The notes: generated by a model not told the origin, from the letters alone. DNA of 57,909 bases from a virus (IMGVR_UViG_3300030430_001633:1-57909), one strand, 5' to 3'; shown: positions 17,984-33,400, counted from the stretch's first letter. Numbers and translations: made by a program.

Positions 17984-18200
17984 AAACTAAGGTTCCTCAA
18001 TAAAGCGAATATTTTATAAATATATCGAAAATTTTTCAAGGGCAATGAACCTATGACGTTTCAGCATCAACAGGGGTACGTCATCTCGGCTTTTGATCGA
18101 GTAGGGTCAATATCCTGAAACTTTTTTGTTATCACACGATTTGTCCAAAACTTGGCTATACACCGAGGTACAGCCAAGGGGACGGTCTCGCGGGGGCCAC

Positions 18201-18226
18201 AAAAAAAGCCCCGCGCTAGGCGGGGC
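18201..18226 (-). terminator. Intrinsic terminator of GA/TC-free gene
   Basis: gccccgc/gcggggc stem, T7 tail on minus strand. Confidence 0.85.
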
Positions 18227-18265
18227 CAAGGTGGCGGGGGTACCCTAGGCACCCCCGCGCTGCGG

Positions 18266-18709
18266 TTACTTGGTAGGCTGGGGCTGCGCTACCAGTTTAA
18301 CGTAGCCAGTGCCCCATACCGCGCTGCTAGGGCTGTAGCCGCCGTTAAGCAAAGCCAGCAGGCAAATTGGCTTTTTGCTGCTGTGGCCTAGCGGCTTAGC
18401 TGCGGCCAATATTGCGGCAAGGCTATTATTGCCGTTAACACCGTTAAGCAGCCAGCCCTGTATTGTGGCGCGCACGCCACCGGCCTTGCCGTTAAAGCCA
18501 AACGGTACAGGCTGCGGCTGGTCAAGCTGCACGTTTGGCAGCGGCACAACTTGCACATTATGCAGGTTGCCGCCCGCGTGCTGCTGCACAAACTGCCAAA
18601 TGCAAGCGTAGGTTAACTCGTTACCTGTGTGTTGCAGGGTTGCAGCCTTAACGGTGGCTGCTTTAACCGTGGCCTTTTGGGTGGCCTTACCCTTTTTAGC
18701 GTTTTGCAT
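18266..18709 (-). CDS. Hypothetical basic protein, paralogue A (GA/TC-depleted gene; only 1 Asp + 1 Glu)
   Basis: Own promoter, AGAAAGG RBS and terminator; clearly homologous to 19138-19557. Confidence 0.8.
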   Translation of the reverse strand: MQNAKKGKATQKATVKAATVKAATLQHTGNELTYACIWQFVQQHAGGNLHNVQVVPLPNVQLDQPQPVPFGFNGKAGGVRATIQGWLLNGVNGNNSLAAILAAAKPLGHSSKKPICLLALLNGGYSPSSAVWGTGYVKLVAQPQPTK

Positions 18710-18763
18710 TTTACAAGCCTTTCTTTGCTGTAATGCAGGTAAGCGTTATTGCTTACAATTTTT

Positions 18764-18791
18764 ATTATAAGCATTTAAAAGTCAATAACAA
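18764..18791 (-). promoter_or_regulatory. Sigma70-like promoter of paralogue A
   Basis: TTGTTA-N16-TATAAT on minus strand, AT-rich upstream. Confidence 0.55.
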
Positions 18792-19104
18792 CCCCCTAAC
18801 CTAACTTTTTTTAATTTTTATTAACGAGAAAATGCCAAGACATATTAGCATCAGTATCAGTATCCACATCGCGCTGCTCCTTTGTTTGCGTTGCTATTTC
18901 TGTGGCAGTTCAGAACATTCCTGACCAATCCTATTTTGTTCGCCAAAATCCTCTAAAATCTTCACGCTGCGCGACGATGATTGATGACGACCGATGATAC
19001 ATCTAGAGGGACATTGATTGATATATATAGACTTAGGCCTATATATATCGGTCTTCGTCTAGGATGGGAGTCATCATCCTTCCTCCTCAACGATGGTCCT
19101 CGGT

Positions 19105-19130
19105 GAAAGGGGACGCCCGTGGACGTCCCC
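19105..19130 (-). terminator. Probable terminator of paralogue B
   Basis: ggggacg/cgtcccc stem followed by short TTTC on minus strand. Confidence 0.5.
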
Positions 19131-19137
19131 CCGATTG

Positions 19138-19557
19138 TTAACCTTTGACTACCAGCTTGACGAACGGAGTCATCCAGTATTTGCTAGACGGTGAATATCC
19201 ACCGTGCATCAAGGCGTGTAGGCAGACTGGCTTTTTGCGCGAGTGTCCTAATGGTGCTGCCTTATTGAGTGCTGCCTTTAGCGACGTGTCGCCGTCTACA
19301 CCAAACAACATCCAATCTTGGATGGTCTGGCGTACACCACCCGGACGTCCACCATAACCAAAGGGGACGGGCTGCACGGACTCCTTGTCAACATTGTCTA
19401 GCGGCACAATGTGGACGTTCGCCTCGTTACCGCCAGCGTGCTCTTGGACGAATTGCCAGATCTGGTCGTACGAGATCTCTGCATCGGTGACAAGGAGCTC
19501 AGCTGATTTAACGACAGCTTTGGCGGTGGACTTTTTAACAGATTTTTTAGCAGTCAT
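19138..19557 (-). CDS. Hypothetical basic protein, paralogue B (normal Asp/Glu)
   Basis: IWQFVQEHAGGN, QPVPFG, GGVR.TIQ.W, PLGHS.KKP.CL, GGYSPSS shared with paralogue A; AGAAAGGA RBS. Confidence 0.8.
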   Translation of the reverse strand: MTAKKSVKKSTAKAVVKSAELLVTDAEISYDQIWQFVQEHAGGNEANVHIVPLDNVDKESVQPVPFGYGGRPGGVRQTIQDWMLFGVDGDTSLKAALNKAAPLGHSRKKPVCLHALMHGGYSPSSKYWMTPFVKLVVKG

Positions 19558-19606
19558 GACATGTCCTTTCTACGACATCTCTATAAGCACCATTGCTTAT
19601 GAGTAT

Positions 19607-19649
19607 AGAGTAGCACCTAGGATTTTTATTGACAAGTCATTAATTGTCA
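19607..19649 (-). promoter_or_regulatory. Promoter with GAYAA-N8-TTRTC palindrome
   Basis: TGACAA-gtcattaa-TTGTCA at 19630-19649; -10-like TACTCT 17 bp downstream on minus strand. Confidence 0.6.
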
Positions 19650-19769
19650 AAAAACATCAGCGTCATCATCTATCATCATCAGGTCTGCGAATCCTCGTAA
19701 ATCGTCAGCCGACAATGATTGAGGAAGATTGATGAGTTGACTCTGGACAGAAGATGATTGATGACAAAA

Positions 19770-20210
19770 CTAGACTTCGTCCTCCCTTGTGATGGGAGAT
19801 GAGGATGATAAAATATGATTGATGGCCCCCGCCCAATCGTAAGGAATCCCTGAGCTCCAGTCAGGGGACAATGGTCCGTCTTTCTCTGTCTGTCCTGCTA
19901 TCTCCATGGCCCTAGAACCGTGAAATATATTTATAGTTCGGGAAGAAGGATGACCAACCAAGTTCCAGACATTACCAGATTGTCCGCTATATCTTATCTG
20001 CCAAGCAATTTGATGAGGACGAAGTGCGATCTTGTTTAGTGAGTTTAACCTATGGACCTTCAGCTCAAGCCAAAAAGCATAGCCGTCAAGTATGCCGTGC
20101 AAGTCAGGTACTCCAGGACTAGACCAAGACTCTAGGCGCGTCCAAAACACGCCTAGCTCCTTAGTTCCCTCACGGAGATTTTTCCACAATGTGGACTCTG
20201 GTTTACTCAC
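19770..20210 (-). CDS. VRR-NUC / Holliday junction resolvase-like PD-(D/E)XK nuclease
   Basis: E...GVPDL...WLELK...LRPHQIAW. Confidence 0.8.
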   Translation of the reverse strand: MSKPESTLWKNLREGTKELGVFWTRLESWSSPGVPDLHGILDGYAFWLELKVHRLNSLNKIALRPHQIAWQIRYSGQSGNVWNLVGHPSSRTINIFHGSRAMEIAGQTEKDGPLSPDWSSGIPYDWAGAINHILSSSSPITREDEV

Positions 20211-20416
20211 CGCAAACCAAGCCGACGCTGCTCTGCTTTGCTCATCGGAAACGACTCACAGATCTGTTCGCCGTCGCGCGTGATACGGATGTAGTGCTTG
20301 TAGAGATTTGTCTCAGCATACTCAAAAGCCTTTCCCTCATCCTTAAATCCAGCCACATACGCCCAGTCATCTGTAGACGCGTGGTATTTCTCAATGGTGT
20401 AAAATCCTGGTTGCAT
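20207..20416 (-). CDS. Hypothetical early protein
   Basis: CTCGTAGAAAGGAG RBS. Confidence 0.7.
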   Translation of the reverse strand: MQPGFYTIEKYHASTDDWAYVAGFKDEGKAFEYAETNLYKHYIRITRDGEQICESFPMSKAEQRRLGLR

Positions 20417-20452
20417 CTGTCTGCTCCTTTCTACGAGCGTTGTTACAATAAT

Positions 20453-20495
20453 AAAGTAACAAAGGGGACAATCAATGACACCCCCTTTGTTGTCT
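20453..20495 (-). promoter_or_regulatory. Promoter with palindromic box
   Basis: TGACAC-N8-TTGTCT at 20476-20495; TACTTT 17 bp downstream. Confidence 0.5.
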
Positions 20496-20502
20496 TGTTG
20501 TG

Positions 20503-20718
20503 TCAGCTATAAATGCTGTCGGCTACAGACTTACGCATAAACCCGATAATCTCTAGGTTGTCAACGAAGTTGTCCCATCCTTGGTTCCAGTCATCCTTGG
20601 TGTAGGGTGTCCAGTCTGCTGATCTGTCTCGGTTTATTTCTTCCAAGACCTGAGTAAGATCCCAGACAAACCTTTCGCCTGTCTGGGTATCCCGCACAAT
20701 GTAGCGCATATCACTCAT
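20503..20718 (-). CDS. Hypothetical early protein
   Basis: Probable start MSDMRYIV; EEINRDRS..WT.Y motif. Confidence 0.6.
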   Translation of the reverse strand: MSDMRYIVRDTQTGERFVWDLTQVLEEINRDRSADWTPYTKDDWNQGWDNFVDNLEIIGFMRKSVADSIYS

Positions 20719-20902
20719 GTTCATCCAACCTGAACATCTGGATCTGGTTTTGGCACTGGGGACAAGGGGTTTTGTCCTCATCGGTTAGGTGTCTGGCATA
20801 ATTATTGCCGAGCATCGGCATCCCACACAAGGTAGTCGGCTCATTGGGTATCTGCCAATGCTGCTGGCCGAGACGTTTAGTCCACTCATACAACTGTGTC
20901 AT
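20711..20902 (-). CDS. Small Cys/His (Zn-binding) protein
   Basis: H..., TLCG.PMLG, CPQC. Confidence 0.6.
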   Translation of the reverse strand: MTQLYEWTKRLGQQHWQIPNEPTTLCGMPMLGNNYARHLTDEDKTPCPQCQNQIQMFRLDEHE

Positions 20903-21210
20903 TGGAACCTCCCCTGCTCAAGTGCTGCCTCGTTGTTCCAGATAGCTTCGTCAGACTCGTCGTAGCTGTCTTGGTCAACCTGCTCATCCTCGAGAGCGTC
21001 CATGAATTGTATGGCAGCCACGCGGTTGTCGTAATCGCGCTTGGCCTCGTCGTAGCTGTTGTAGATGCGTATGTTACCAGAGATACGCTTGGGAGTAGCA
21101 AGGCCATCCTCGCGGAAAACCATCCAGCCTATGTTGATAGGCGCGTAACGCAGGACTGTTTGTGAGCGTCCCTCGTTAAACACATAAGTAAGGTCTTTGG
21201 GCATCTTCAT
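20899..21210 (-). CDS. Hypothetical early protein
   Basis: Start MKMPKD after AGAAAGGAG RBS. Confidence 0.65.
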   Translation of the reverse strand: MKMPKDLTYVFNEGRSQTVLRYAPINIGWMVFREDGLATPKRISGNIRIYNSYDEAKRDYDNRVAAIQFMDALEDEQVDQDSYDESDEAIWNNEAALEQGRFQ

Positions 21211-21245
21211 TGTGAGCTCCTTTCTGTGAGCGTTGCAATAATTAT

Positions 21246-21297
21246 AAGGTAATACAAGTGACGGCAAGTGATAAGTCTTTTATGCTCACTTGCCGTC
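21246..21297 (-). promoter_or_regulatory. Promoter box embedded in 12-bp inverted repeat
   Basis: TGATAA-N8-TGCTCA at 21269-21288 within gacggcaagtga/tcacttgccgtc. Confidence 0.55.
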
Positions 21298-21304
21298 CTA
21301 TTAA

Positions 21305-21577
21305 TTAGTAGTCACGCAAAAACTGCTTGAGCTCAAACAGGTGGGCGTCCTCGGCAACGGTAGTTGCGTAGGTGCAGTCAACCTTGCAGTCATCATTGTT
21401 AGTGTTTGTAATGGTGACGTGCGTCTCATGCTCAAAACCAACTATGCTTATTTGCCTCAAATCATCAAGGCAGCATAGCACCCTGTCATCAGTGACCTCA
21501 AGGTGTGTTGGCTGTATTGCGTGATAGTCAACCCAGTGGTGCAACACTGCGTCTCGGGTTTGTTCAAAGTAGTTCAT
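21305..21577 (-). CDS. Hypothetical early protein
   Basis: AGAAAGGA RBS, own promoter. Confidence 0.65.
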   Translation of the reverse strand: MNYFEQTRDAVLHHWVDYHAIQPTHLEVTDDRVLCCLDDLRQISIVGFEHETHVTITNTNNDDCKVDCTYATTVAEDAHLFELKQFLRDY

Positions 21578-21609
21578 CGTAACGTGTCCTTTCTTTGACT
21601 GTTGTTACA

Positions 21610-21657
21610 ATTATACTATGCCATAGTTGAGTAAAAATGATAACTCTTTATTTGTCG
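21610..21657 (-). promoter_or_regulatory. Promoter with palindromic box
   Basis: TGATAA-N8-TTGTCG at 21638-21657; TATAAT at 21610-21615 on minus strand. Confidence 0.55.
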
Positions 21658-22184
21658 CTATCTTCATGCTCAATAATCATGTTCCCGTCTGCGACGACAG
21701 CCAGCGCGGGGAACTCTTCCTGAATCTTTTTAATTTCTCGCATCACTTCATCGCGGCTCATCTGGTCAATCTTCCCATGGAGGATTTCTTTACGATCTAT
21801 ATAGATCCCAGCAGCCTGTCCTCTAGACTTCTCGGCAGCGACGGCAGCAGCAAAATTTCCTCCCGTCATGGCAGCGTCACGGATCTCTGCAAGTTTTTTG
21901 ACATGACCTTCAAAGCTCACCTCATACTTACGAGCCAGCTCTTGCTTCAGTTCACGGATCCTCTCCACGACATGGGGATACCGCTGCCCATTGAGTAATT
22001 GTGAGGCAATGGCATGGGCAGACTTCACAGAATATCCAGCGCGGACTGCTGCCTCAGTCTGGGAAATATCCTCACAGACGTAGAGTCGTGCAAATTCTTC
22101 TTGTTTCGGCGTGATGGATTTTTCTTTGCGCGGATTTGCGACGACATCGAGTGTGGGTTTATGAGTCGCTTTTGCCAGAGCCAT
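21648..22184 (-). CDS. terS: Terminase small subunit
   Basis: ITPKQEEFARLY...TEAAVRAGYS...A..IASQLL HTH typical of TerS. Confidence 0.75.
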   Translation of the reverse strand: MALAKATHKPTLDVVANPRKEKSITPKQEEFARLYVCEDISQTEAAVRAGYSVKSAHAIASQLLNGQRYPHVVERIRELKQELARKYEVSFEGHVKKLAEIRDAAMTGGNFAAAVAAEKSRGQAAGIYIDRKEILHGKIDQMSRDEVMREIKKIQEEFPALAVVADGNMIIEHEDSDK

Positions 22185-22220
22185 GTGACCCCTCTCCTCT
22201 TAGCGATGGGATACTTTGCA

Positions 22221-22286
22221 TAATAGGACCAAAACAGAATTTTGTTAAATTCAAATTTATCGCAGATTCAACCGCGCGGACGGAAA
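22221..22286. repeat. Bipartite dispersed repeat, copy 1 (origin candidate)
   Basis: taataggaccaaaac...cgcgcggacggaaa; second copy at 40382-40446. Confidence 0.7.
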
Positions 22287-22589
22287 TACTTTCGTTGAGA
22301 TATTGGTTATTGAACCATCAACCTACCCACAACTCATTGAATATATGTGGATACCCATATATCGTATATTTTCAATTCATAAAAAACAAATTTACTCCCA
22401 TCCATCATTCACCCCTATATACCAAACTGACCAATTTAGGGGGTTACCTACCTACCACCCCCTGCCTTTGAGACGATCGAGCGGCGTCGAGAAGCGGTCT
22501 TTTTTGCCTCGCGAACCAAGTTTAGTGGGTAAAAGACCCCCAGCCGTTACCGACTGAGGGCAAGTTTAGGGAGGAATTATGAAGCAAGG

Positions 22590-22880
22590 TTACTTCTTCA
22601 CGTCCCACCCTAACATAGATTTCACACGTTGCCACATATCAATCCAAACATTTTGCGACGGAGGTGCGGAACCCAGAGCTTTTTGGCTCTTGTTATTAAA
22701 CTGGTCTACGGAGATGATTGGGTTAGGCATGGTCTCGGTTGGCACTCGACTATAGAGCACATACGTTAGTTGATTCATAGTCAGGTTATGATTGCGGCTC
22801 AACTCGCGGAGGGTATCCCCCGCGAGCTTATCTGCATGAACCTCATCAATCAACCGTTGAGTGTACTTTTTACGCGGCAT
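22590..22880 (-). CDS. HTH-containing protein
   Basis: Probable start MPRKKYT; GDTLRELSRNHNLTMNQLTYVL. Confidence 0.55.
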   Translation of the reverse strand: MPRKKYTQRLIDEVHADKLAGDTLRELSRNHNLTMNQLTYVLYSRVPTETMPNPIISVDQFNNKSQKALGSAPPSQNVWIDMWQRVKSMLGWDVKK

Positions 22881-23334
22881 CGTTTTCCCTCCTGCGAATA
22901 ATCTCACGGGCTTTAGCCGTCCCCTGCGCCGTGATGTGGTACTTATGGGGCTTATCATCGCCTAACCGCTGGGCGTCACCACGCCTTGCCAGATTGTAGA
23001 GCGCACCCGAAGGGTCTTCAATCTCTGCAATATCCATAAAGTCACGGGCTGTCAGGGTAGCATTAGTTTCGTACAACCTCAGTAGGATCTCAGCGGTGCC
23101 ACCGTAGCTAATCAGCTTGCCTCCCCTTTTACTCCGCTTGACTTTAATCTTACTCGTAGGAGCCGCGACGGTAGGGGCTGGCATAGTCTGGCTTGTAGGG
23201 GTGACCATGCCATTCTTTATCATCCAGCGGATCTGCATACCAACGGTGCGGCACTCAGCATCGGCTACGGTCTTCAACAGGTTGTACGTATCAATGTCAA
23301 CCGAGATAGACTTATACTGTTCGGGATCGGCCAT
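22870..23334 (-). CDS. Putative transcription regulator (ribbon-helix-helix N-terminus, winged-helix C-terminus)
   Basis: YKSISVDIDTYNLLKTVA...RT...QIRWMI; C-terminal LTARDF...ALYNLARRG...YHITAQG. Confidence 0.55.
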   Translation of the reverse strand: MADPEQYKSISVDIDTYNLLKTVADAECRTVGMQIRWMIKNGMVTPTSQTMPAPTVAAPTSKIKVKRSKRGGKLISYGGTAEILLRLYETNATLTARDFMDIAEIEDPSGALYNLARRGDAQRLGDDKPHKYHITAQGTAKAREIIRRRENDAA

Positions 23335-23569
23335 TTTTCTTGGTCCTTTCTTCCAATAGGGCTACTTCTCTAGCCTTGTTTGCAATCATGCTTTCTAAGA
23401 TTGCTCTGGCCTCTGGACTACGAAAGCACACCGTAGCCAGAGTGTATGAGAGTAGACCGCACTCACGGTCTACCTCGTAATTTTTGTTACCTTGCTCCAG
23501 AGTATACTGGAACTCATCTAGGTTACGGAGGTGTTTAATCGCACCCCGCACCTCACTGTAAGTAGTCAT
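23312..23569 (-). CDS. Hypothetical protein
   Basis: Coupled ORF. Confidence 0.55.
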   Translation of the reverse strand: MTTYSEVRGAIKHLRNLDEFQYTLEQGNKNYEVDRECGLLSYTLATVCFRSPEARAILESMIANKAREVALLEERTKKNGRSRTV

Positions 23570-24036
23570 GAGATGTCGATATCTACATTGAAAGTAACCT
23601 TATCACGCAGTATTTCTAACACGCGGTCTTCAAGGTCACAGTCAGCAACGTAGTTATCAAGATCGTCTCGTGTAGCAACCTCATCACGAGCACCCTCTAC
23701 CTCATCATCTAACTCTTGTAGCTTGGTTTCTAGGTCAATCACACGAGCGTAGATATCATCTACTGTTTTACCAGCAGCATCTAAGTTTTGCTGGCCTATA
23801 GACATATCTTTCAACTTGTAAAGTAAACCCATGATGTGCTGCATATCAGCACCAAGGTTCTCAAACCTGCTACGCACATCACTTATGCGTTGAGCCTGTG
23901 CATTGATTGGGTTAACCTCATCACGAGCGGCAATGTCTGTACACACAGCATTGTCTACTTCACTACTCTCAGGCACAGCAGTAGCAGCACCAGACAAACC
24001 AGATACAACAGCATTAGCTTCAACTTTCTCAGTCAT
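23566..24036 (-). CDS. Coiled-coil acidic hypothetical protein
   Basis: AGAAAGGAG RBS. Confidence 0.65.
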   Translation of the reverse strand: MTEKVEANAVVSGLSGAATAVPESSEVDNAVCTDIAARDEVNPINAQAQRISDVRSRFENLGADMQHIMGLLYKLKDMSIGQQNLDAAGKTVDDIYARVIDLETKLQELDDEVEGARDEVATRDDLDNYVADCDLEDRVLEILRDKVTFNVDIDIS

Positions 24037-24099
24037 AACCTACTCCTTTCTTGAGCGGTCGGTGGTTACATGATAGAGAGGCTCTCTACCACTAAATAT

Positions 24100-24143
24100 A
24101 GTATGCCACAACAGATATTAGGTGATAACTCGTTTGTTATCAC
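24100..24143 (-). promoter_or_regulatory. Promoter with perfect palindromic box
   Basis: GTGATAAC-tcgttt-GTTATCAC at 24122-24143. Confidence 0.6.
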
Positions 24144-24397
24144 TAAAACCGTGGCTCATCTTTCCAATACAGATTGCCATACTCATCTACAATACAATCA
24201 CGTTCGGGGTCAAGTTCTACTTCTCCAGAACCTTCACATTTATCGCACTCATCCATGTAACCTTCTAAGTATCCACCATTCATATAGTCAATGACGGGAC
24301 GTTCATACTCGCAAGTCCCCTCACCACCACACTGGGGGCAAGATACATGGGTGACATTATCATCTACAGGTACTAGATTGTGCATAGGTGACCCCAC
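24143..24397 (-). CDS. DnaJ-type CxxCxGxG Zn-finger protein
   Basis: CPQCGGEG...CDKCEGSG. Confidence 0.65.
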   Translation of the reverse strand: MGSPMHNLVPVDDNVTHVSCPQCGGEGTCEYERPVIDYMNGGYLEGYMDECDKCEGSGEVELDPERDCIVDEYGNLYWKDEPRF

Positions 24398-24595
24398 TTA
24401 TTTTAAGGAATAAGAAATACTACGACGAGCATGATTACGGTCATAAGGTCCATTTCCATAACGCTGTGTCTCCTTTCTAGAGAGTTTCATGTACTCATTT
24501 AACCAGCAGGAATAGCAGAGATAACCGATTGGCTCAGCTACCTCCGCTGGATCATTGCACTTATCACACTTCCGTTTTTTCATCACGGGCCTCAA
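24398..24595 (-). CDS. Small Zn-finger protein
   Basis: CDKC...CYSC. Confidence 0.55.
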   Translation of the reverse strand: MRPVMKKRKCDKCNDPAEVAEPIGYLCYSCWLNEYMKLSRKETQRYGNGPYDRNHARRSISYSLK

Positions 24596-24785
24596 ACAGC
24601 GGTTTGAAAGCTACGTTAACCGAGCGCAGTGGTAGATGGTCAGATATAATACAGTCTAGCTCAAAAGAGTCAATGCCAAGACCTGACATTCCCTTTTTGA
24701 ACTCATCATCATCTATATTCCCTTGCGTCCAGTCGTGGATCAGTTCATCATAAGTGCCTAACCACAAGTCTCCCATTCTACCCAT
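24564..24785 (-). CDS. Hypothetical protein
   Basis: Coupled ORF. Confidence 0.5.
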   Translation of the reverse strand: MGRMGDLWLGTYDELIHDWTQGNIDDDEFKKGMSGLGIDSFELDCIISDHLPLRSVNVAFKPLFEARDEKTEV

Positions 24786-25046
24786 TTAATCCCCCAATCC
24801 GTGAAAGATGTTGTGAAACCACACCGGCTTACTCTTGTCGAGTTTTAGCTTACCGTTGACCCAGTCATAATAGCCATGGATTTTTGGCTTACGTCTCCCT
24901 TTCAAGACCACAATCTCTTTAACATCGGTGGTGGCTTTGGGAGATCTCTGTAGATGAGCCTGTACCAGACTTATCTTAGAATAGATAGGCGTGAGAGAAA
25001 CCCCCTCACGCGAGTTGTGGTAAACAAGAGCAGAGTACATCACCAC
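24786..25046 (-). CDS. Hypothetical protein
   Basis: Coupled ORF. Confidence 0.55.
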   Translation of the reverse strand: MVMYSALVYHNSREGVSLTPIYSKISLVQAHLQRSPKATTDVKEIVVLKGRRKPKIHGYYDWVNGKLKLDKSKPVWFHNIFHGLGD

Positions 25047-25049
25047 CCC

Positions 25050-25262
25050 CTATTGAAACAAAAGGTTGTAGTCGTGAGCGTACAAGAAGTCGTCAAAGCT
25101 ACCATCACATGTTGTTAGCTTCCAGATTTCCCATTCGTACAAGAAAACCTGAGCAGCCTCACCCTGTAAGAAGAATGACCAGCCAGCCTCATGCTGTTTA
25201 ACAGTGACGCAGCGTTCACCGTTAAACTGCTCATCCTGCATTGAATAACCACCAATAATCAT
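25050..25262 (-). CDS. Hypothetical early protein
   Basis: CTCGTAGAAAGGAG RBS; FFLQGEAA.VF..EW. Confidence 0.65.
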   Translation of the reverse strand: MIIGGYSMQDEQFNGERCVTVKQHEAGWSFFLQGEAAQVFLYEWEIWKLTTCDGSFDDFLYAHDYNLLFQ

Positions 25263-25480
25263 GGCTCACTCCTTTCTACGAGTTTAAGTTACAGTTTAAT
25301 TCTAAAGCATTACCTATTGAAGACAATAACAAATTACTCAAAAGAGAGCAGTTTTGCCTCATGCTCAGGAGTCTTTGGTCATAGGTTGTTCAACTCTGTT
25401 TTTTCGGATCCCTAGTACCAGAGTTATGGAGCTCCTAGGTTAACGTCCCTAAACTTGCATCGGCGTAGGGCGGCCTGACC

Positions 25481-25870: not shown

Positions 25871-25956
25871 ATCTAACTCCTTTCTACGAGTGTTGGTTGC
25901 TGTTAGCTAATATATAGGTATAGATATTTTGATAGACAAAAATTATATTCTCACGT

Positions 25957-26202
25957 TTAGTCTTCATTTGGAGCAGTCCATTTAGCTCCCACTAGATATC
26001 CGCACTCTCCACAACTGATTTGACCCTCCATGTGAGAAATGAGATTGAACGAGCTAGATCCACAGAGCGAGCAGAGTAGAACCTCTACCTCATGCTCAGT
26101 GACCACTAAATTCTTCTCCTCTATGATGGGGACTTTTTCTCGTCGGATGAAAGGGATGACATTGTCTCTCTCATGAATGGGGGAGTTGGCCTTCTGCGCC
26201 AT
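25957..26202 (-). CDS. Small Zn-ribbon protein (start uncertain)
   Basis: CSLCG...CGECG. Confidence 0.5.
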   Translation of the reverse strand: MAQKANSPIHERDNVIPFIRREKVPIIEEKNLVVTEHEVEVLLCSLCGSSSFNLISHMEGQISCGECGYLVGAKWTAPNED

Positions 26203-26627
26203 ACACTAAACCTCGCTTTTTCATAGATGTAATAATTTTGGTACGCCGTGATTGTATCAGAATGTTTATATTCATCGGGCATAGCTTGATAAGGTTTAGT
26301 AAACCCTCTAGCGTCTAGCCCTATTGGTGGACATCGTAACATTGCGAGAATCCTCCCACAATCATGGTATTTGTCAAAACGATAAGTGTATTCTTTACAA
26401 AGAGCTACACCTAGTTTCCACAACCACCGATAATTTTCTACTGTTTGACCTGCCCAAAGAGTGCAGCCATGTTTCGGGCTGAAGGGTTTATAGGGCGCGT
26501 CACCTTGGTAGCGGTGATGCACACTACTTAACATCTGGCAGGTTTCTAGTGGCATCTTTATAACGTGCTTATCATTGTGCCACTGAGCGCAGATTACTTG
26601 GTCCCAATCGATAATAAATATATTCAT
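26121..26627 (-). CDS. Pyrimidine-dimer DNA glycosylase (T4 endonuclease V-like)
   Basis: MNIF.........A..H.DKHV.KM.LE..QMLS, H.CTLW, L..EY..RF.K.H, QAMPDEYK...AYQNYY. Confidence 0.75.
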   Translation of the reverse strand: MNIFIIDWDQVICAQWHNDKHVIKMPLETCQMLSSVHHRYQGDAPYKPFSPKHGCTLWAGQTVENYRWLWKLGVALCKEYTYRFDKYHDCGRILAMLRCPPIGLDARGFTKPYQAMPDEYKHSDTITAYQNYYIYEKARFSVWRRRPTPPFMRETMSSLSSDEKKSPS

Positions 26628-26730
26628 CCACACCTCACATCAACCCCCTGCACCACAAACTCATTCCGTGCTCGAGCCTGTGGTGCAGAGTTATATAAGG
26701 TATAGCTTACAAGCGGAACGAAGACTGCTC

Positions 26731-26907
26731 CTATTTGTTCACTAACTTCGTACTTATGTTACTTAGATAAAACAAAGTTTCCTCTGAGTAATCTTTCAAG
26801 GCTTCACGGATTGCTTCTCTGTGGTCTGAGGTGTTTACAACAAATGTATCCGTAAACTCTACCGGATTAAACAGAGAAACATTTACCTCACAACATACTT
26901 CATTCAT
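26731..26907 (-). CDS. Hypothetical protein
   Basis: GGAGG RBS before MNEV. Confidence 0.5.
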   Translation of the reverse strand: MNEVCCEVNVSLFNPVEFTDTFVVNTSDHREAIREALKDYSEETLFYLSNISTKLVNK

Positions 26908-26990
26908 AAGAACCTCCAAGGTTAGGTGTTGCAGTACGTTAACGCCGGAATACCTGCAACATTTATGCCCTGAACGTTCTTATGATATCA

Positions 26991-27281
26991 TTAGACGTAA
27001 TCACCACTGTGGATTGCTGCCTCAATTTCTTCATCAGTCATCTGATCAAAATCTAAATCTTCTATTCTTTTCGTCGGTCTGCGATATTTCCTTCTATTTA
27101 TTTTCGGCGGCTTGGTTTCTACTACTTTTTTCTTGACGACAGTTTCTTTTTCAGGTTTTAATACTTCTATTGTGTAATATCGGGTTTTACATTTCTTACA
27201 TTCTCGTCGCCTCATGATGGTATCCTCAAAAGGTCGACTATCATAAACTCCGCTTTTACCTCCACACTTGATACAGTTCAT
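26991..27281 (-). CDS. NrdR-like N-terminal Zn-ribbon protein (no ATP cone)
   Basis: MNC.KCG....V.DSR......RRRECKKC..R..T.E. Confidence 0.7.
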   Translation of the reverse strand: MNCIKCGGKSGVYDSRPFEDTIMRRRECKKCKTRYYTIEVLKPEKETVVKKKVVETKPPKINRRKYRRPTKRIEDLDFDQMTDEEIEAAIHSGDYV

Positions 27282-27290
27282 AATCAACTC

Positions 27291-27815
27291 CTATGGTGTT
27301 AAACTATTATGATTCAGCACCGCCTCTACTGGTTTAAATTCTTCATCACCAGAAAACTTTTCGTAAAGATATTCAACTCCAGTTTCCATAATCCTTTTCA
27401 TCTGTGGGTTGCCCCCAGAGTGACGTTTAGTGTAGAGCACGAGCTCTAACATATCTGCCATTTTAAGTCTTCGTTGCTCTTCTAGGGTGAGCACGAACAC
27501 CAAACCTAACTCTTCTAATACTTTTTGTTCTGCTTTTTCAAAGGCTTGTTTTATTTCAGGGTAATCCCACTTAGCAGTGGCAGGTGTATCACCCAAAATT
27601 AATTCTGGTACGTCGTGATACAACGCAGCCATTATTAATTGCTTGCTGCTATCAGGCCATAGTTGATCTATCAAAACACTTACTGCATATGAATGTGCTC
27701 CCACGGTTTGCCTTTCTGATTGCATCGCAACCGTATGATATCGTAATAAAAACTGTGCATCCCAAACAGCGGATATAGTCTTAATTTTTTGTATTGTGTT
27801 GCATTTCTGTGCCAC
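27291..27815 (-). CDS. HD-domain deoxynucleotide hydrolase (YfbR-like)
   Basis: RYH...QTVGAHSY...ALYHD.PE...GD.P...K...KMADMLE. Confidence 0.8.
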   Translation of the reverse strand: MAQKCNTIQKIKTISAVWDAQFLLRYHTVAMQSERQTVGAHSYAVSVLIDQLWPDSSKQLIMAALYHDVPELILGDTPATAKWDYPEIKQAFEKAEQKVLEELGLVFVLTLEEQRRLKMADMLELVLYTKRHSGGNPQMKRIMETGVEYLYEKFSGDEEFKPVEAVLNHNSLTP

Positions 27816-29721
27816 CGTCTTTTACTCCTCTGAGCCAAGGTTTTTCTGCGAATGTTTGTTTAGCCTCTCCCCAGTTAGGGCCGAACTCTGCATCTACAAT
27901 AGAAGGCACCTCTAGCTTTACGCAGTTCTCCATAATTTCAGTAATCTGTTTTGCCTGAGCTTCACTTTCAACAGAGATGTCCAGCTCATCGTGAACTTGA
28001 ATCATGGGTAATATGCCTTCGTCAGCTAGAGCAACCATCGCTGCTTTTGTTTGATCTGCCGCACTGCCCTGTATGAGTTTATTAAGAGCCTTATATGTAA
28101 ACGCCCTTTTGATTCCTGGGCCATGCTCAGCGTAGGCTTCTTGGTAAGTCATAGGCTTCCAGCTTCCGTATTTGTTTGGCTCCCACTTATCAAAGCGGCA
28201 TCTACGGCCTAACAAGGTACGGATTACACCACGGTTATTGGCACGATTAGTGCTGTACTCACTGAGCTCGCGTACAAAGGGGACTTTGTCATGGTAAGTA
28301 GCAAACAAATCCTGAGCATCTTCAAACTCTAGGCCAAGACTCGCCGCCAGTTTTTTACTCCCCATCCCATAAAACAAACCAAGGTTGATATCTTTAGCCT
28401 GTTTGCGTGGCACACCCACAATATCAGCAGCCATCTGATGGAAATCTGTACGGGGGTCGGTATTATATTGTTCAGCAAAGTCTGAAGCCCCTCTGAAGCC
28501 CATCAGTTTGGCATAATGCACAACTATGCGCGGTTCTTGGCTGGAGTAGTCGAACGCGCCCCACTGACAGTCTTGTTCGGGTATGAATAAGCTACGGATC
28601 ATTGGCCCTATTTCGCCATGCCGTGCTGGGATTTGTTGAAGATTCGGGTTGCTGTAGCTGAATCTACCTGTAACGGTGCCGCCATCATCACTGCGGAGTG
28701 GGTGCAGTTCAGCGTGTATCCTACCATCTACCTGATGTTTGAGTATAGTATCTACAAATGTTGATCTAGCCTTTTGGTACTCTCGGGCCTGAACTATCAT
28801 TTGTGGTACTTCATGTGGGTGGTGGCTCAAGAAACCTTTAGTAAAGCTCGGTGCGCCCGTCTTTTCTGTTTTATTGTACGGTAAGTCTAAGGCATCAAAT
28901 GCTTTAGCAACACTTTCAGCCGCCCATATCTCTACTTCTACACCTGTTTGTCGTTTTACATGGCCGAGAAGTTTCTGTTCTTTTGCAAGCAACTCTTCTT
29001 TGATGCGCTCACATTTATCTAAATCTACTCTTACGCCGCGTTCTCGCATGGGGATTATTGTTTTAAGAACATTGAGTTCAAGGTTAAAGATATCTTGTAT
29101 ATCTTCTTTTATTATTAAAGTCTTAAAATGCTGCCATAGTCTCAATGTCAGGGCGGCATCTTGCTCTGCATATTTACCCACATGATGTGCGGGTAACCGA
29201 TACATCTCACTCTTGGCATTTACACCAAATGCGTCTGCGGCTTCTCGCAACTCAGCTTCGCTTTTACGCTCTTGTAAGTAATCCCGCCCGATAGCGTTTA
29301 GGGCATAGCTGAACCTGTTTTCGTCGAGCAAAGGTGCCACGACCATTGTGTCAATGATTCTGCCGTAGGTCCGCAGACGGGGCCAAACATTCTCTGCGAG
29401 CAACCAGCCAACATCATAAGGAGCGTTATGGAAAATATAATCTCTATCTTTTTGAACAACATCGCGCAACCAACCTAAAGTTTTCTTAACATCAAAGTTA
29501 GGGCCGATCTCGTGACGAATGGGGAAGTACCATTGGTCACCTTCAACAGCCACCGCAATGCCGATAATGTGGCCGTCTCTCCTAGCCCAACCACTACCCA
29601 TAGTGATTAGATTAGGGTCGCGTGTTTCTAAGTCAATAGCAACCTCTTTCGCCCCTGATATATCGGGGTAGCCATCAGGCATGACCCACTCAGTCGGCGG
29701 TTGAAATAGGGGGTACTGCAT
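27781..29721 (-). CDS. polA: DNA polymerase family A with 3'-5' exonuclease
   Basis: IDLET, HNAPYD, YAEQDA, TGRFS..PNLQQIP, DYSSQEPR, KDINLGLFYG, QVHDEL. Confidence 0.95.
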   Translation of the reverse strand: MQYPLFQPPTEWVMPDGYPDISGAKEVAIDLETRDPNLITMGSGWARRDGHIIGIAVAVEGDQWYFPIRHEIGPNFDVKKTLGWLRDVVQKDRDYIFHNAPYDVGWLLAENVWPRLRTYGRIIDTMVVAPLLDENRFSYALNAIGRDYLQERKSEAELREAADAFGVNAKSEMYRLPAHHVGKYAEQDAALTLRLWQHFKTLIIKEDIQDIFNLELNVLKTIIPMRERGVRVDLDKCERIKEELLAKEQKLLGHVKRQTGVEVEIWAAESVAKAFDALDLPYNKTEKTGAPSFTKGFLSHHPHEVPQMIVQAREYQKARSTFVDTILKHQVDGRIHAELHPLRSDDGGTVTGRFSYSNPNLQQIPARHGEIGPMIRSLFIPEQDCQWGAFDYSSQEPRIVVHYAKLMGFRGASDFAEQYNTDPRTDFHQMAADIVGVPRKQAKDINLGLFYGMGSKKLAASLGLEFEDAQDLFATYHDKVPFVRELSEYSTNRANNRGVIRTLLGRRCRFDKWEPNKYGSWKPMTYQEAYAEHGPGIKRAFTYKALNKLIQGSAADQTKAAMVALADEGILPMIQVHDELDISVESEAQAKQITEIMENCVKLEVPSIVDAEFGPNWGEAKQTFAEKPWLRGVKDGGTEMQHNTKN

Positions 29722-29866
29722 TGCCTTTTACTTTCATCGGTTGCTTACATCTGGCACAAACGGGCCACCTGTTTTTTAAATTACGAAAAGTGACTGTGCG
29801 TGTTGCACCACACTCGCAGGATGCTTCTACTTGTTTATCTAAGTTACTTTCTTTTTCCTGACTCAT
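29690..29866 (-). CDS. Small Zn-ribbon protein (58 aa; not in ORF track)
   Basis: Manual translation MSQEKESNLDKQVEASCECGATRTVTFRNLKNRWPVCARCKQPMKVKGNAVPPISTAD; fills the gap between neighbours. Confidence 0.55.
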   Translation of the reverse strand: MSQEKESNLDKQVEASCECGATRTVTFRNLKNRWPVCARCKQPMKVKGNAVPPISTAD

Positions 29867-30200
29867 TCTTTACCCTCAGCGACATCTCAGCTTCTACGAG
29901 GAAAAGATACCTGCGTAAATCCCGTATGTCGTCTAGTATACCTTCTTCACGGGTATCTTTAGATATAGCAGCAAACACATCGTAATGGTGTTCGTTTACT
30001 TGCTTTTCTAGCCTGTCCCACTTACGCGCCAGCATCATAAACGCACCCACACCGCCGCGCTGTTTCCAGCTATCGCCGTAAGATTGCTCAGCTTCTTGGA
30101 GCTTTACTGTATCCAAACTAGCAAGAACATCTACTTGCCGGATAATTTCACTGGGTTGGTCTTTCATTTTATCTTTCATGTATTGCTCGTGCCTTTTCAC
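29844..30200 (-). CDS. MazG-like all-alpha nucleotide-modification-associated protein
   Basis: K......YGDSW..RG..G......RKWDRL, D...DL..YL.L; next to the TS homologue. Confidence 0.6.
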   Translation of the reverse strand: MKRHEQYMKDKMKDQPSEIIRQVDVLASLDTVKLQEAEQSYGDSWKQRGGVGAFMMLARKWDRLEKQVNEHHYDVFAAISKDTREEGILDDIRDLRRYLFLVEAEMSLRVKNESGKRK

Positions 30201-31174
30201 CTCAATCTCCTATCTAGCCATTCCATACAAGCCTTACGCCATGCACGGTCACCTATAGAATGAGCATGGTAATATGCGCTTGTATAATTTTTTGCTTTCC
30301 AGCAACGCCAAGATAATCTCATCTGGGCGCAGGTATCACCTAAGTAAGTGTTCTCATATTCCAGCCTATCTATATCTTCAAACCATTCTAGTAATTCTTT
30401 GTCAAAGGTAGAAGGCTCATCAATCAAAGCAGGTGGCGTATATTTCAAGCCGTCTTCACTCAAAGTAAGGTAAGGCTCATATTGCGGCTGCATACCGTCT
30501 AGTTTTTTAAGCACATCTACATATGCGTGTAGATTATTACTGAACTGATAATAGTTACCTATGCCGTATCCAAGCATCCCTGCCATGTATTCTAACAAGA
30601 CAGACATATGCACAGCATTTGCACCAAACGCTCCCCAGATCATATCGTTACTGCGATTGCACACAGTCATATGCAAATCTTCATCGCGCTCCCAAAACAT
30701 AATCTGCGTATTACAGGGATAATCTTTACCATCGTTAGTTTCAACTAAGTCTTGGCGTGGATCCCACATACCAACCACAACTCTGCGATCATTAGGATAA
30801 GTGCTCAACCTAAACAATGCTTTTTGTAACTGATCTTTGCCGAACCAGTTACGCCACCTATATCCATATGCACCGTGAAAAGTCACCCCATCATCGCTGT
30901 AGGTGTTCATCCTGCCGTTAAACTGGCTAATCCAATCCACATCGTTACGCCCTGCCAACATCCACAAGCTCTCCATCAAGTGGAAATACGGGTTAGCATC
31001 GCGCTCATGGTAAAACAGCACTCGCTCACGGCTGTGGGTGTAAGTAGTTGTCACAGGTGTAGGGAACTCTAAGGCAGCACCGTTACGAGTTTGCACCTCT
31101 ACACCACTGCTTTCAATACCTTGCTTGGCTAGATAAAGGGCCTCACTTACCCCACGAGCATTAATTGATTGCAT
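30197..31174 (-). CDS. Thymidylate synthase homologue, probable dUMP hydroxymethylase
   Basis: NPYFHLMESLWMLAGRND, GAYG.R, D.PC (catalytic Cys), RSND..WG..GAN (Asn favours dUMP), NLHAY. Confidence 0.8.
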   Translation of the reverse strand: MQSINARGVSEALYLAKQGIESSGVEVQTRNGAALEFPTPVTTTYTHSRERVLFYHERDANPYFHLMESLWMLAGRNDVDWISQFNGRMNTYSDDGVTFHGAYGYRWRNWFGKDQLQKALFRLSTYPNDRRVVVGMWDPRQDLVETNDGKDYPCNTQIMFWERDEDLHMTVCNRSNDMIWGAFGANAVHMSVLLEYMAGMLGYGIGNYYQFSNNLHAYVDVLKKLDGMQPQYEPYLTLSEDGLKYTPPALIDEPSTFDKELLEWFEDIDRLEYENTYLGDTCAQMRLSWRCWKAKNYTSAYYHAHSIGDRAWRKACMEWLDRRLR

Positions 31175-31232
31175 ATAACGCCTCCTCGACGTGCTAAAAG
31201 GTTATGGGCGGGGGTAAGGTACCCTAGCACCC

Positions 31233-32507
31233 CTAAGATGCTCGAGCGGGGTCTGCAGACCTAATGCCGAAAAACTCGAGGTTCTTGTGGCACCTTTGCA
31301 TAGCCAATGTGTCAGGAGTACCTACGCTTAATCCATTCGTATCCATTACTAAGTCAACATACTCTTGTGCTACATTCCGCATATCAAAACGCTTTAGGAG
31401 TTCTAGGTTGTTTTCCTTTATCCTGAGCCACTGGTTCTTATCATGTATGGCTTTATCAATAATATCAGCAAACAGGAAAGGCTGAGCTTCAGCAGGTATT
31501 TGGATGAAGTTTTGCCCTGCCTTAAATATCTCACTGTTTTTCATGCCCCAATCTGTAGCGACAGGTACCGCACCACAGATGATTGCTTCTACAGTAGTCC
31601 GGTTAAAATGTGCGCCGAACTTAGAATACTTTTTACTGTAACTCGGGTCAATCTGTAGCTTGACTGTTTTTAGTATCTCAAACACTTTGTCATTAGTTAC
31701 CGTACCTAAATGCTCCATACCAAAACGCTTGGCTCTGTCCCATATGCGGTCGCCAGTTTCATCAAAGTATTTTGGTTTGCACTTATCTGGGCTAGTCATG
31801 TAGCGGTACTCAATGCCTTCTCCACCAATGAGCTTGCGCTCACTGTTGGTCATATATCTTATGGCACGAACTAATGTGTCTACACGCTTCCAAGCCTTAA
31901 ATACTTGGATAGCTGCAAACCCATCACGTTTTTCAAAGTCAGTCCAACCATCGGCACCGCTTATATCAAAAGGGTTAACAATCAACTTGCGCGGTATGGG
32001 CAGCATGTCGCCAGAGTGCATGGCAGATTCATGAACGCAGACTGCCGCATGAAAGTTGTGCTTTTGGTAGATCAAATGCGGGTAAAGCTCAGGCAGGTTA
32101 CCATCATGAATGATGGCTATGTTTTTACTGCCGTGGTCGTACAAATCTAGCCAATCTTGGACATCCTTATTTTCCTTATTCAAGGTTGGCACAGGGATGT
32201 GCCACAGCACGGCGTCATACTTGCTGCACTTCTGCTTAAACATATCCCTTTGGTATTTTGATTTGTACGGAACTTTAGGCATTCCTACCCAACCCCTAGC
32301 TTGATGGTGGGGGTATCCGGTGCCTACCTTACGGTATTGATCAAAGTTTTTAGGAGGTGTAAACCTACCGATTATTTTTTCTTTAGGCACGAGCATGGTA
32401 AAGTCAACCTCGTGGCCTAATTCTTTTAAACCTTTTGCAAGATACTCTGCGTGGTTAATTATCCCACCATAATCCTGTATCTGATACATTGTCATAAGAA
32501 ACTTCAT
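31233..32507 (-). CDS. GT-B fold glycosyltransferase
   Basis: GGIINH...LAKGLKELGHEV, IIHD, WKRVD.LVRA, DPS...FN.T.VEAI..G.VPV.TD. Confidence 0.8.
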   Translation of the reverse strand: MKFLMTMYQIQDYGGIINHAEYLAKGLKELGHEVDFTMLVPKEKIIGRFTPPKNFDQYRKVGTGYPHHQARGWVGMPKVPYKSKYQRDMFKQKCSKYDAVLWHIPVPTLNKENKDVQDWLDLYDHGSKNIAIIHDGNLPELYPHLIYQKHNFHAAVCVHESAMHSGDMLPIPRKLIVNPFDISGADGWTDFEKRDGFAAIQVFKAWKRVDTLVRAIRYMTNSERKLIGGEGIEYRYMTSPDKCKPKYFDETGDRIWDRAKRFGMEHLGTVTNDKVFEILKTVKLQIDPSYSKKYSKFGAHFNRTTVEAIICGAVPVATDWGMKNSEIFKAGQNFIQIPAEAQPFLFADIIDKAIHDKNQWLRIKENNLELLKRFDMRNVAQEYVDLVMDTNGLSVGTPDTLAMQRCHKNLEFFGIRSADPARAS

Positions 32508-33400
32508 TCTACGGCTCCTTGTGGTACTTCATTAAATAAGTCTGGCTTGTAGACGCTACGCGGTCGCCCTTGGCCTAACCTTACACGTTCGTACTTGTCC
32601 CATTCGCATAAGCTATGTTCAATAGTACGCATATCCACTTGATCAAGTGGCACATGGGGCATGATGTAAAACGGGGCCGTTGATAACAACTTACGCATGA
32701 AGTCATTTGCCACAGCTTGCGTCATACCTTTTTTAAGAGGGTTACCTAATATTCGGTTTAGTCCTCGTATAGCTCCCGGCCCAGCGTTCGCCCAGCTATT
32801 ACGGTCTTTTGCCGATGATAGTACAGGCGTGTAATTGAGGTCCGTAACGACCTCGTATGACATAAAACCTCCCCCTCCCCATCCCCGATAGGCACCCATC
32901 GCCTCATGTAAGGCTTGGAGCGACTGCGTGGTTTGGGCAATCTGCGCCAACGCTTCTTTGTTTTCCCAGATAGGGGCAAGAAAATGGTCAACCACTACCT
33001 CTGACTTTGGTAACTTGAGTCCTTGGTTAGTGATTATATATGCACCAGTAAACGTCCGTAAGCCCTGTTCAATGCGAGAGTTTATCAGGTCTTTAGTAAA
33101 TGTCGGGTTAAACTCTTGCGACCAGCCGTGTTGCTCGGCAAACTCACTGGTGCCAATCATACGAAACAAACAACAATTAAATATAATCTCACCGTGGGGA
33201 CGGTTGTGGTTAGGGTCTGTCCAGTTTTCCCGCATCCACACAGTAACCCTATCGTTCTCACGGAACGGGTTTGTAAATTTAAACTCTTGTAAGATGGGGT
33301 CATCTGTCCATGGAGCAGAAGCACCCGACCTCCTGCGTAGGTAGATCGAGTGCCTCTCATTAATCCACCCGAAGTAACTTTCTATAGCTTCGGTGAGCAT
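32504..33400 (-). CDS. 5-hmdU DNA kinase-like protein (aGPT-Pplase1 family)
   Basis: ERH.IY.RR..G...PWTDDPILQ.FKFTN.FRE.DR.T, FTGAY, FM.YE...DL.Y, GPGA.RGL, IEH.LCE.DKY.R. Confidence 0.8.
   Translation of the reverse strand: MLTEAIESYFGWINERHSIYLRRRSGASAPWTDDPILQEFKFTNPFRENDRVTVWMRENWTDPNHNRPHGEIIFNCCLFRMIGTSEFAEQHGWSQEFNPTFTKDLINSRIEQGLRTFTGAYIITNQGLKLPKSEVVVDHFLAPIWENKEALAQIAQTTQSLQALHEAMGAYRGWGGGGFMSYEVVTDLNYTPVLSSAKDRNSWANAGPGAIRGLNRILGNPLKKGMTQAVANDFMRKLLSTAPFYIMPHVPLDQVDMRTIEHSLCEWDKYERVRLGQGRPRSVYKPDLFNEVPQGAVE

Follow-up and report, generated by a model that had tools for sequence, protein, structure and literature searches.

A single small transcription unit in the genome of an uncultured marine phage (IMGVR_UViG_3300030430_001633, a viral metagenome record that is 98% complete) has been stripped almost entirely of one dinucleotide step, 5'-TC-3' together with its complement GA. 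The window analysed here is the whole 57,909-nt stretch, whose genes lie almost all on the minus strand, and the unit in question carries gene A, which stands in tandem with its paralogue, gene B, between terS (21648-22184) and the terminase large subunit gene terL (16520-17983, minus strand, directly downstream of unit A). On the plus strand from 18189 to 18825, TC occurs only at 18522, 18618, 18722 and 18782 and GA not at all, where roughly 70 sites would be expected. We hold with high confidence that this avoidance operates at the level of DNA, is specific to one dinucleotide step, and is tied to one expression cassette. The parts of the cassette and its neighbouring paralogue are:

18189-18825, unstranded: GA/TC-depleted island, 637 bp, with 4 TC and 0 GA on the plus strand.
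18764-18791, minus strand: sigma70-like promoter of unit A (TTGTTA, 16-nt spacer, TATAAT).
18739-18756, minus strand: stem-loop near the 5' end of the A transcript (stem of 6 bp, loop AATAAC).
18266-18709, minus strand: gene A, encoding a basic 147-aa protein with one Asp and one Glu, a paralogue of B with a novel predicted fold.
18200-18258, minus strand: intrinsic terminator of unit A, formed by two GC-rich hairpins in tandem with seven T after the second one.
19138-19557, minus strand: gene B, encoding 139 aa with 12 Asp+Glu, at a GA/TC density of 36 per 300 bp.

The longest interval between GA/TC sites in the island is 334 bp, against 50 bp for the longest elsewhere in the window, where GA+TC density averages 32.7 +/- 6.5 per 300 bp; by our own arithmetic, the chance of a 334-bp gap at 10.9 sites per 100 bp is about e^-36. 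Among the 10 strand-symmetric dinucleotides, GA/TC alone has an outlying gap (4.2x the expected maximum, the others <=1.7x), and genome-wide the observed/expected ratios (o/e) are 0.95 for TC and 0.78 for GA. An earlier note on this DNA had proposed the island, the paralogy of A and B, GA/TC-heavy flanks of B, and a palindrome, GAYAA-N8-TTRTC, at putative promoters, and each of these was borne out: the island by the counts above, the paralogy by 59% identity (E=2e-56), the heavy flanks by 6 of the 12 densest 60-bp GA/TC windows of the genome falling within 18952-19903, in or beside B, and the palindrome by 7 copies in the genome against 0.27 expected.

The depleted span is coextensive with promoter, 5' untranslated region (UTR), gene A and terminator, and GA/TC density is normal again a few bases past the T-run. 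By our own arithmetic, the 117 bp upstream of the A start codon hold 2 sites where about 13 are expected. Both GA and TC are missing from one strand, so that depletion is equal on both strands, and it runs across codon boundaries and alters the Shine-Dalgarno sequence in relatives. Because both dinucleotides are missing per strand, the non-coding parts are covered, and codon boundaries are crossed, the avoidance acts on the DNA and not on protein or codons. GC content over 18190-18720 is 58% (own arithmetic) against 45% for the window, and AA/TT is not enriched in the island; a hypermutation footprint was rejected on the latter ground.

The unit holds a promoter, a ribosome-binding site, an open reading frame (ORF) and an intrinsic terminator, an architecture that is repeated in relatives, and from these sequence elements it is predicted to be an autonomous bacterial-type transcription unit. 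Its promoter matches 10 of 12 consensus positions (a comparison with the sigma70 consensus only), and relatives have equivalent AT-rich promoter-like regions before A. The 5' hairpin recurs in the A units of 21 of 22 diverse relatives (mean z -3.05) with differing stem sequences, and may serve as an mRNA stabiliser or a regulator-binding site. The terminator folds at -44.9 kcal/mol (z -2.33), and a search of Rfam over 17800-20300 gave one match, far below threshold.

The purge goes beyond what amino-acid composition explains. Synonymous recoding of A with phage codon usage gave 27.7 +/- 4.1 sites, with a minimum of 12 in 3000 recodings, where 2 are observed; five A orthologues with no site at all would be expected to carry 28-32, while B under the same recoding holds 50 observed sites against 43 expected. 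The protein itself bears the mark of this selection: 13 of 49 distinct A proteins are without Asp or Glu, and 9 of those 13 genes are site-free, whereas all 44 distinct B proteins have 8-16 acidic residues. The PFG, GGVR, LGHSxKxPxC and GGY motifs are nonetheless invariant in A proteins despite the purge. Purifying selection against new GA/TC sites is ongoing, as seen in variants (>=90% identity) on contigs from four marine runs, among 20 DNA runs from 10 studies dated 2014-2022: among 22 listed island substitutions none creates a GA/TC site, where 6.3 would be expected.

The same state recurs widely. A search with B returned 80 related viral loci, 68 of which carry A and B in tandem. We write G000 for the genome under study, G001-G016 for genome records of its relatives, and L-numbers for loci, L098+L099 standing for phage M6 and L119+L120 for phage PhiJL001. 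Under a window rule of at most 5 sites in 400 bp, an island is present in 28 of the 80 loci, every time at A, with site-free runs of up to 846 bp, and each of 5 whole genomes has a single one. A is depleted (at most 6 GA+TC per 300 bp) in 30 of the 68 two-gene loci; over these 68, A holds <=1 site per 300 bp in 11, 1-6 in 19, 6-12 in 10 and 16-31 in 28, and B is constantly high at 29-46. No A in any locus is depleted of another dinucleotide, and we accordingly rejected the idea that normal A genes avoid a different dinucleotide instead. The depleted state is held across A alleles that are only 43-75% identical to the window's A.

A behaves as a swapped cassette, since the loci L045 and L046 are 92-100% identical in their flanks and drop to 51-79% precisely over the A unit. 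Many contigs are interrupted within or close to A, as would fit microdiversity at this place. A phage gene that co-varies with the state of A was sought among 5 depleted and 2 normal genomes and rejected, as only short ORFs did so, at least 1 of them antisense within the glycosyltransferase-like (GT-like) gene described below. The A/B tree is a quick one in which shared amino-acid composition could group depleted copies artificially, and we therefore draw no order of events from it.

The predicted fold of the A protein is confident (pLDDT 88.8, pTM 0.79) behind a disordered N-terminus rich in Lys, Ala and Thr, and Foldseek of A and B against PDB and BFVD found no neighbour (best E-values 1.3 and 0.88), so the modelled fold appears to be new. 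Searches of A and B in Pfam, PHROG, NCBIfam and PADLOC gave no match, nor did megablast of 17000-33400 against GenBank phages or tblastn of B; by these comparisons no cultured relative among the GenBank phages searched appears to carry A or B. The family does include 485 metagenome proteins at E<=0.001, and among 120 members listed, with Tara among the sources, all source names are 'hypothetical protein' or a bare gene call. A protein atlas gave unnamed viral clusters only, the nearest Pfam-bearing cluster (DUF3489, at 0.75) being a weak lead that we did not use. M6 gp002, an 'anti-restriction protein', was considered as a relative of A and B and rejected as not related.

What agent would make one dinucleotide so costly in one cassette? 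In the explanation that we favour, T in the phage DNA is probably replaced by a base derived from 5-hydroxymethyluracil (hmU, also 5hmU), and a bulky group would be added only where T precedes C. Selection would then have stripped every 5'-TC-3' from both strands of the promoter, 5' hairpin, gene A and terminator. A cassette without TC on either strand can carry no such adduct, and unit A would therefore be canonical, unmodified DNA within an otherwise modified chromosome. The likely benefit would be that unaided host sigma70 RNA polymerase (RNAP) could read A promptly and efficiently on incoming DNA. That the avoided agent is the phage's own TC-context modification, with prompt reading of A by host RNAP as its benefit, we rate at about even chances. 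The genes listed here make such a modification plausible:

30197-31174, minus strand: divergent thymidylate synthase (TS)-family enzyme, 44% identical to M6 gp58.
31233-32507, minus strand: GT1-like (GT-B) glycosyltransferase-like protein.
32504-33400, minus strand: PF18723 ('HMUDK helical domain') protein, a homologue of M6 gp55 and not a P-loop kinase.
27291-27815, minus strand: HD 5'-deoxynucleotidase-like protein.
27781-29721, minus strand: family A DNA polymerase (PolA).

The TS-like enzyme (PF00303, E=9.9e-21) shares the PCN and RSND..GAN catalytic motifs with M6 gp58 and scores far below the NCBIfam ThyA cut-offs, which makes it a candidate dUMP hydroxymethylase. The PF18723 protein (E=5.8e-50) is 35% identical to M6 gp55 (E=2e-54). 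The TS-like gene is present in 15 of 15 records, and PF18723 in 15 of 20, including 7 of 7 near-complete ones. Given the conserved TS-like, PF18723, GT-like, HD and PolA module, an hmU-type modification is plausible. The earlier note had read this region as encoding modification enzymes, and the TS-like, PF18723 and GT-like module is indeed there, while its identification of a kinase at 32504-33400 was wrong: that ORF encodes the PF18723 protein, and a P-loop kinase was not found in the clade records searched. The notion that kinase specificity sets the island was dropped, as the ORF is not a kinase and near-identical PF18723 proteins accompany both states of A. Nor does the island track the presence of the module across genomes, a check that the earlier note had put forward: modification genes are carried by every relative, and PF18723 is present also in G010 and G012, where A is normal. 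The clade carries TS-like, PF18723 and GT1-like proteins and, in the records searched, is without PF18748, and its module may, judging from gene content, represent an undescribed route to hmU modification.

The context of the modification can be approached from hexamer palindromes, on the premise that sites holding a modification's protected context need not be avoided. Pooled over G000, G001, G003, G005, G006, G010 and G012, palindromes that contain GA/TC have an o/e of 0.79 (n=16) against 0.51 for the others (n=48; p=0.002), and none of the 12 most avoided contains GA/TC. GTGCAC is seen 0 times against 63 expected, and TGGCCA (1/37), GGCGCC (1/33), GCGCGC (1/43), CCGCGG (2/47) and ATGCAT (12/79) are also strongly avoided, an extremity that argues for heavy restriction pressure on the clade, while all eight hexamers on GATC or TCGA cores have an o/e of 0.79-1.15. 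GC content confounds the unpaired comparison, and words were therefore paired by their shared 4-bp core: GA/TC words are then less avoided in 7 of 8 cores (+0.83 log2, p=0.023), a result based on those 8 cores and on related genomes. Five other junction classes in the paired test gave nothing significant. The 4-mers GATC (o/e 0.69) and TCGA (0.49) are under-represented, contrary to what protection would predict. In M6, used as a control, avoidance spares CA/TG words (+2.95 unpaired, from mean log2 o/e of -0.08 for CA/TG palindromes and -3.03 for others; +2.05 in the paired form, with 6 of 8 cores) but not GA/TC words. The M6 kinase is reported to modify TG (PMC6449724), and the palindrome signature of M6 matches that specificity. 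The TC context advanced in the earlier note thus finds support in a test that is independent of the island and points to GA/TC, the modification itself being something that we infer.

Dinucleotide context of this kind has precedents, as TG or TC has been inferred for M6, ViI and phiW-14 (PMC6449724), and the phage T-dioxygenase 5mYOX97 is described as preferring NTC (PMC13229309). For transcription, bulky or charged groups on 5hmU in the template are reported to make E. coli RNAP transcribe less in vitro, and plain 5hmU to make it transcribe more (PMC6457204). No RNAP domain was found among 42 ORFs by Pfam, nor with PF00940, a weak negative in that the search controls were not recovered. The earlier note's picture of an unmodified A read by the host draws support from the sigma70-like promoter and from the block that bulky groups impose on RNAP in vitro, and is strained by the 28 of 68 relatives in which A is normal.

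Those relatives are one of several findings that weigh against the favoured explanation. They share the same architecture, and with a non-depleted A they show that a modification-free A is not obligatory. Modification genes do not track the state of A: G009, with a depleted A (7 sites), and G012, G013 and G015, with a normal one (34-36 sites), share 92-94% identical PF18723 proteins. Their B proteins are 94-96% identical and their A proteins only 72-74%; near relatives with near-identical modification genes can differ in this way because the A unit is exchanged as a cassette. Among the 5 depleted and 2 normal genomes compared, no gene credibly co-varies with the state of A, M6 and PhiJL001 have no GA/TC island, and G003 and G004, in which the GT-like gene is replaced by a 323-aa ORF without a Pfam match, have a depleted A all the same. 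Host RNAP transcribes phage DNA that is fully substituted with hmU or with glucosylated 5-hydroxymethylcytosine (hmC), and modification therefore need not block transcription. What the data show is the depletion, its exact match to the transcription unit, its recurrence, its price in amino acids and continuing purifying selection against new sites; the existence of the modification, its TC context and the transcription benefit we infer.

The enzymology is a further difficulty. In M6 the P-loop protein gp54 is the kinase acting on 5-hydroxymethyldeoxyuridine (5-hmdU) in DNA and gp51 the transferase (Lee et al. 2021, Table 1, PMC8989533); their Pfam families, PF18748 and PF18724, define the characterised pathway, and both are without a match in G000. 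PF18748 (P-loop 5-hmdU DNA kinase) was found there by neither the M6 gp54 protein nor the profile, and is present in 0 of 11 records (G000 and 10 relatives; 0 of 7 near-complete), and PF18724 was not matched in G000 at E<=10. M6 gp55, the PF18723 homologue that is shared, is described as dispensable for the in vitro reaction (PMC8989533). By its predicted gene content, the module here differs from the characterised kinase pathway. The patchy, cassette-like distribution leads us to argue that the purge is conditionally useful and not obligatory, which also fits an explanation by modification-dependent defence.

In that alternative, T in TC is again modified, and the cassette would escape a host defence that recognises modified bases (a type IV nuclease or DNA glycosylase, for example), with A as a counter-defence protein needed before the rest of the genome is attacked. 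Strand-equal depletion suits recognition of duplex better than reading of a template; the patchiness among close relatives and the sharp bounds of the cassette (51-79% identity within 92-100% flanks) resemble an arms race, with contig breaks in or near A fitting microdiversity there; and the lack of a co-varying phage gene would point to a host factor. We nevertheless think this unlikely, as A and B match no defence or anti-defence model, Pfam or PHROG family, or known fold, the genome would still be lost to cuts outside the spared stretch of about 640 bp if DNA did not enter in stages, and the literature searched documents no defence of this type against hmU-derived bases. The agent might instead be an enzyme of the host or a competitor that acts on 5'-TC-3' in incoming DNA, the A unit having been made target-free; a TC-specific cytosine deaminase or a thymidine ADP-ribosyltransferase with a TNTC-type motif would be candidates. 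Such an enzyme would explain the dinucleotide-level, strand-symmetric avoidance equally well, would suit a defence that varies between hosts and hence a patchy distribution, and needs no assumption about the PF18723 or GT-like protein. It would, however, leave unexplained why a single small gene is protected while essential genes keep a normal TC density, it leaves the genome-wide relief of GA/TC palindromes unaccounted for, and the island has no deaminase-type footprint, with AA/TT unenriched and GC above that of the genome; we judge it improbable.

The remaining explanations fare worse. The stretch could be kept unmodified for the binding of a packaging or replication protein (terminase at a cos/pac site, or an origin) and not for expression of A, given that terS and terL stand on either side of the unit, that a conserved non-coding element follows where it ends, and that repeat clusters flank B nearby. 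This is very unlikely: the depleted span fits the transcription unit and not the conserved element, which holds GA/TC, the unit is hypervariable in sequence, as a protein-binding site would not be, and nothing in the contig ends hints at a fixed end of the genome, the G005 contig wrapping around. Selection on the RNA, by which the A transcript would evade an endoribonuclease cutting at GA or UC, could call on the depletion of the transcribed terminator and 5' UTR and on the conserved 5' hairpin, which suggests selection on mRNA stability. We regard it as highly improbable in view of the loss of GA and its complement TC from one and the same strand, the entry of depletion into the promoter (those 2 sites in 117 bp), and its extension over an upstream mini-ORF in some relatives. 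A non-adaptive origin, by chance, foreign acquisition or a hypermutation scar, is scarcely credible. The elevated GC of the island would be its one attraction, set against a negligible chance probability, the paralogy of A with the adjacent B, a state held across alleles of 43-75% identity with polymorphisms that avoid site creation, and TC-to-TT products that are not enriched.

Further elements are seen around A and B and beyond:

19631-19648, unstranded: GAYAA-N8-TTRTC palindrome upstream of B; further copies at 20545, 21639, 24124, 34045, 35433 and 40538.
18976-19826, unstranded: five GATGATTGATGAC-like repeats flanking B, in both orientations.
18133-18199, minus strand: conserved element at the island end, upstream of terL, with a C-rich tract, a hairpin and a AAGTTTTGGACAAATCG-type box.
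18801-18869, minus strand: mini-ORF of 22 aa, hydrophobic (MWILIL...), just upstream of the A promoter.

None of 100 shuffles reaches the 7 palindromes of the genome. Every copy precedes, by about 23 nt, a -10-like hexamer belonging to a minus-strand gene; B is among these genes and A is not. A TGGCATA-like box often stands between palindrome and hexamer, and the motif resembles a site at which a dimeric factor would bind phage promoters. Relatives have 4 (G001), 7 (G003), 7 (G012), 3 (G010), 1 (G005) and 1 (G006). The genome has 8 GATGATTGATGAC-like repeats where 1.23 would be expected, 5 of the 8 being around B, and G001, G003, G005 and G010 have GATGATGAC boxes of a similar kind upstream of B; the repeats are candidate iterons or a candidate packaging site. 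Between B and the mini-ORF, a perfect 11-nt inverted repeat (GATATATATAG / CTATATATATC, 8-nt spacer) occupies 19020-19049. The conserved element, which is non-coding and lies between the A terminator and terL, is kept in relatives with depleted and with normal A, and could be a late promoter, a leader or a packaging signal. Mini-ORFs similar to that of the window occur in relatives, and in some (e.g. L014, L017) are GA/TC-free and within the island. On the most ambitious reading, which we think a long shot, the phage would write its expression programme in dinucleotides: the TC-free cassette would be the sole canonical unit, and the only one that unaided host RNAP reads well, its acid-free, new-fold product would license the modified genome, the palindrome promoters and B, and purged and unpurged alleles would be host-tuned, swappable cassettes.

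The ends of the G000 record are arbitrary, and contig breaks among the loci fall inside the variable cassette and not at one fixed point. The idea that A is a terminal gene, injected first, was set aside, as the contig ends lend no support to a fixed end at this place. In G005 the first 1.2 kb and the last 1.5 kb of the contig share a 1,099-bp overlap (93% identity), and the assembly closes on itself by way of two strain variants of the depleted A unit, for which reason the record was classed as linear; an apparent second island in G005 was rejected as the A unit seen at both ends of the wrapped contig. Elsewhere in the window, the only large plus-strand gene encodes an SNF2 helicase (40608-42053), which in PADLOC comes closest to the helicase portions of ZorD and DpdE (E down to 3.5e-42); this probably reflects shared helicase domains rather than a defence function. 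In PhiJL001 (62% GC), a 1,351-bp stretch of the tape-measure region (about 51408-52758) is without TA, 2.7x the expected maximum.

Should the phage's own modification prove to be the cause, this would be the first natural case of a virus purposely keeping part of its genome unmodified, the context of a modification would be readable from sequence, and DNA hypermodification would gain a testable link to transcription. The palindrome-relief test could cheaply predict modification contexts in uncultured phages, and the A/B family, which is abundant in marine metagenomes, offers natural acid-free variants of one protein.

Among known systems, the nearest are M6, ViI and phiW-14, which likewise group a TS-family enzyme, a PF18723 protein, an HD hydrolase and their own PolA in one module (PMC5889632, PMC8989533, PMC6449724), and in which, as described there, only part of T is modified, according to a dinucleotide context inferred as TG or TC, as we propose from the sequence here. 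The present phage differs in having neither PF18748 nor PF18724 and a GT1-like protein in their place, and M6 differs in having no dinucleotide-free island and an inferred context of TG where ours would be TC. 5mYOX97, likewise from a phage, acts on T in DNA that has already been replicated, with a preference for T before C, and its authors suggest epigenetic-like regulation (PMC13229309); it belongs to another enzyme class, no dioxygenase was found in the window ORFs scanned, and the text consulted describes no motif-free gene. Switching of RNAP by C5-modified uracil in vitro used synthetic templates with every T substituted and, in the text consulted, involves no phage and no context (PMC6457204). 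Over open-access papers and bioRxiv, we found no motif-free or modification-free gene described in a modified phage.

Avoidance of target sites is in general a known viral strategy. T7 gene 0.3 and the first-step-transfer DNA of T5 are leading regions poor in restriction sites that carry anti-restriction genes, and unit A may resemble them as a case of a small gene, read by host RNAP, that is kept target-free and would work before the genome is exposed. They avoid specific restriction sites, whereas in unit A the avoidance extends to an entire dinucleotide step, and the price is the loss of all acidic residues. Eukaryotic viruses that suppress dinucleotides, TC under APOBEC3 and CpG under ZAP, are similar in that a dinucleotide read by an enzyme or sensor is avoided. 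Those effects are genome-wide, partial and partly mutational, while the depletion described here is local, nearly absolute, selective and strand-symmetric; it is limited to one unit, and the genome-wide loss with enrichment of mutation products that APOBEC3- or ZAP-type pressure would leave is not seen. Set beside these systems, and within the scope of the open-access and bioRxiv literature, we found no other account of a gene from both strands of which an entire dinucleotide step has been purged, with its protein freed of acidic residues and the motifs of its fold kept.

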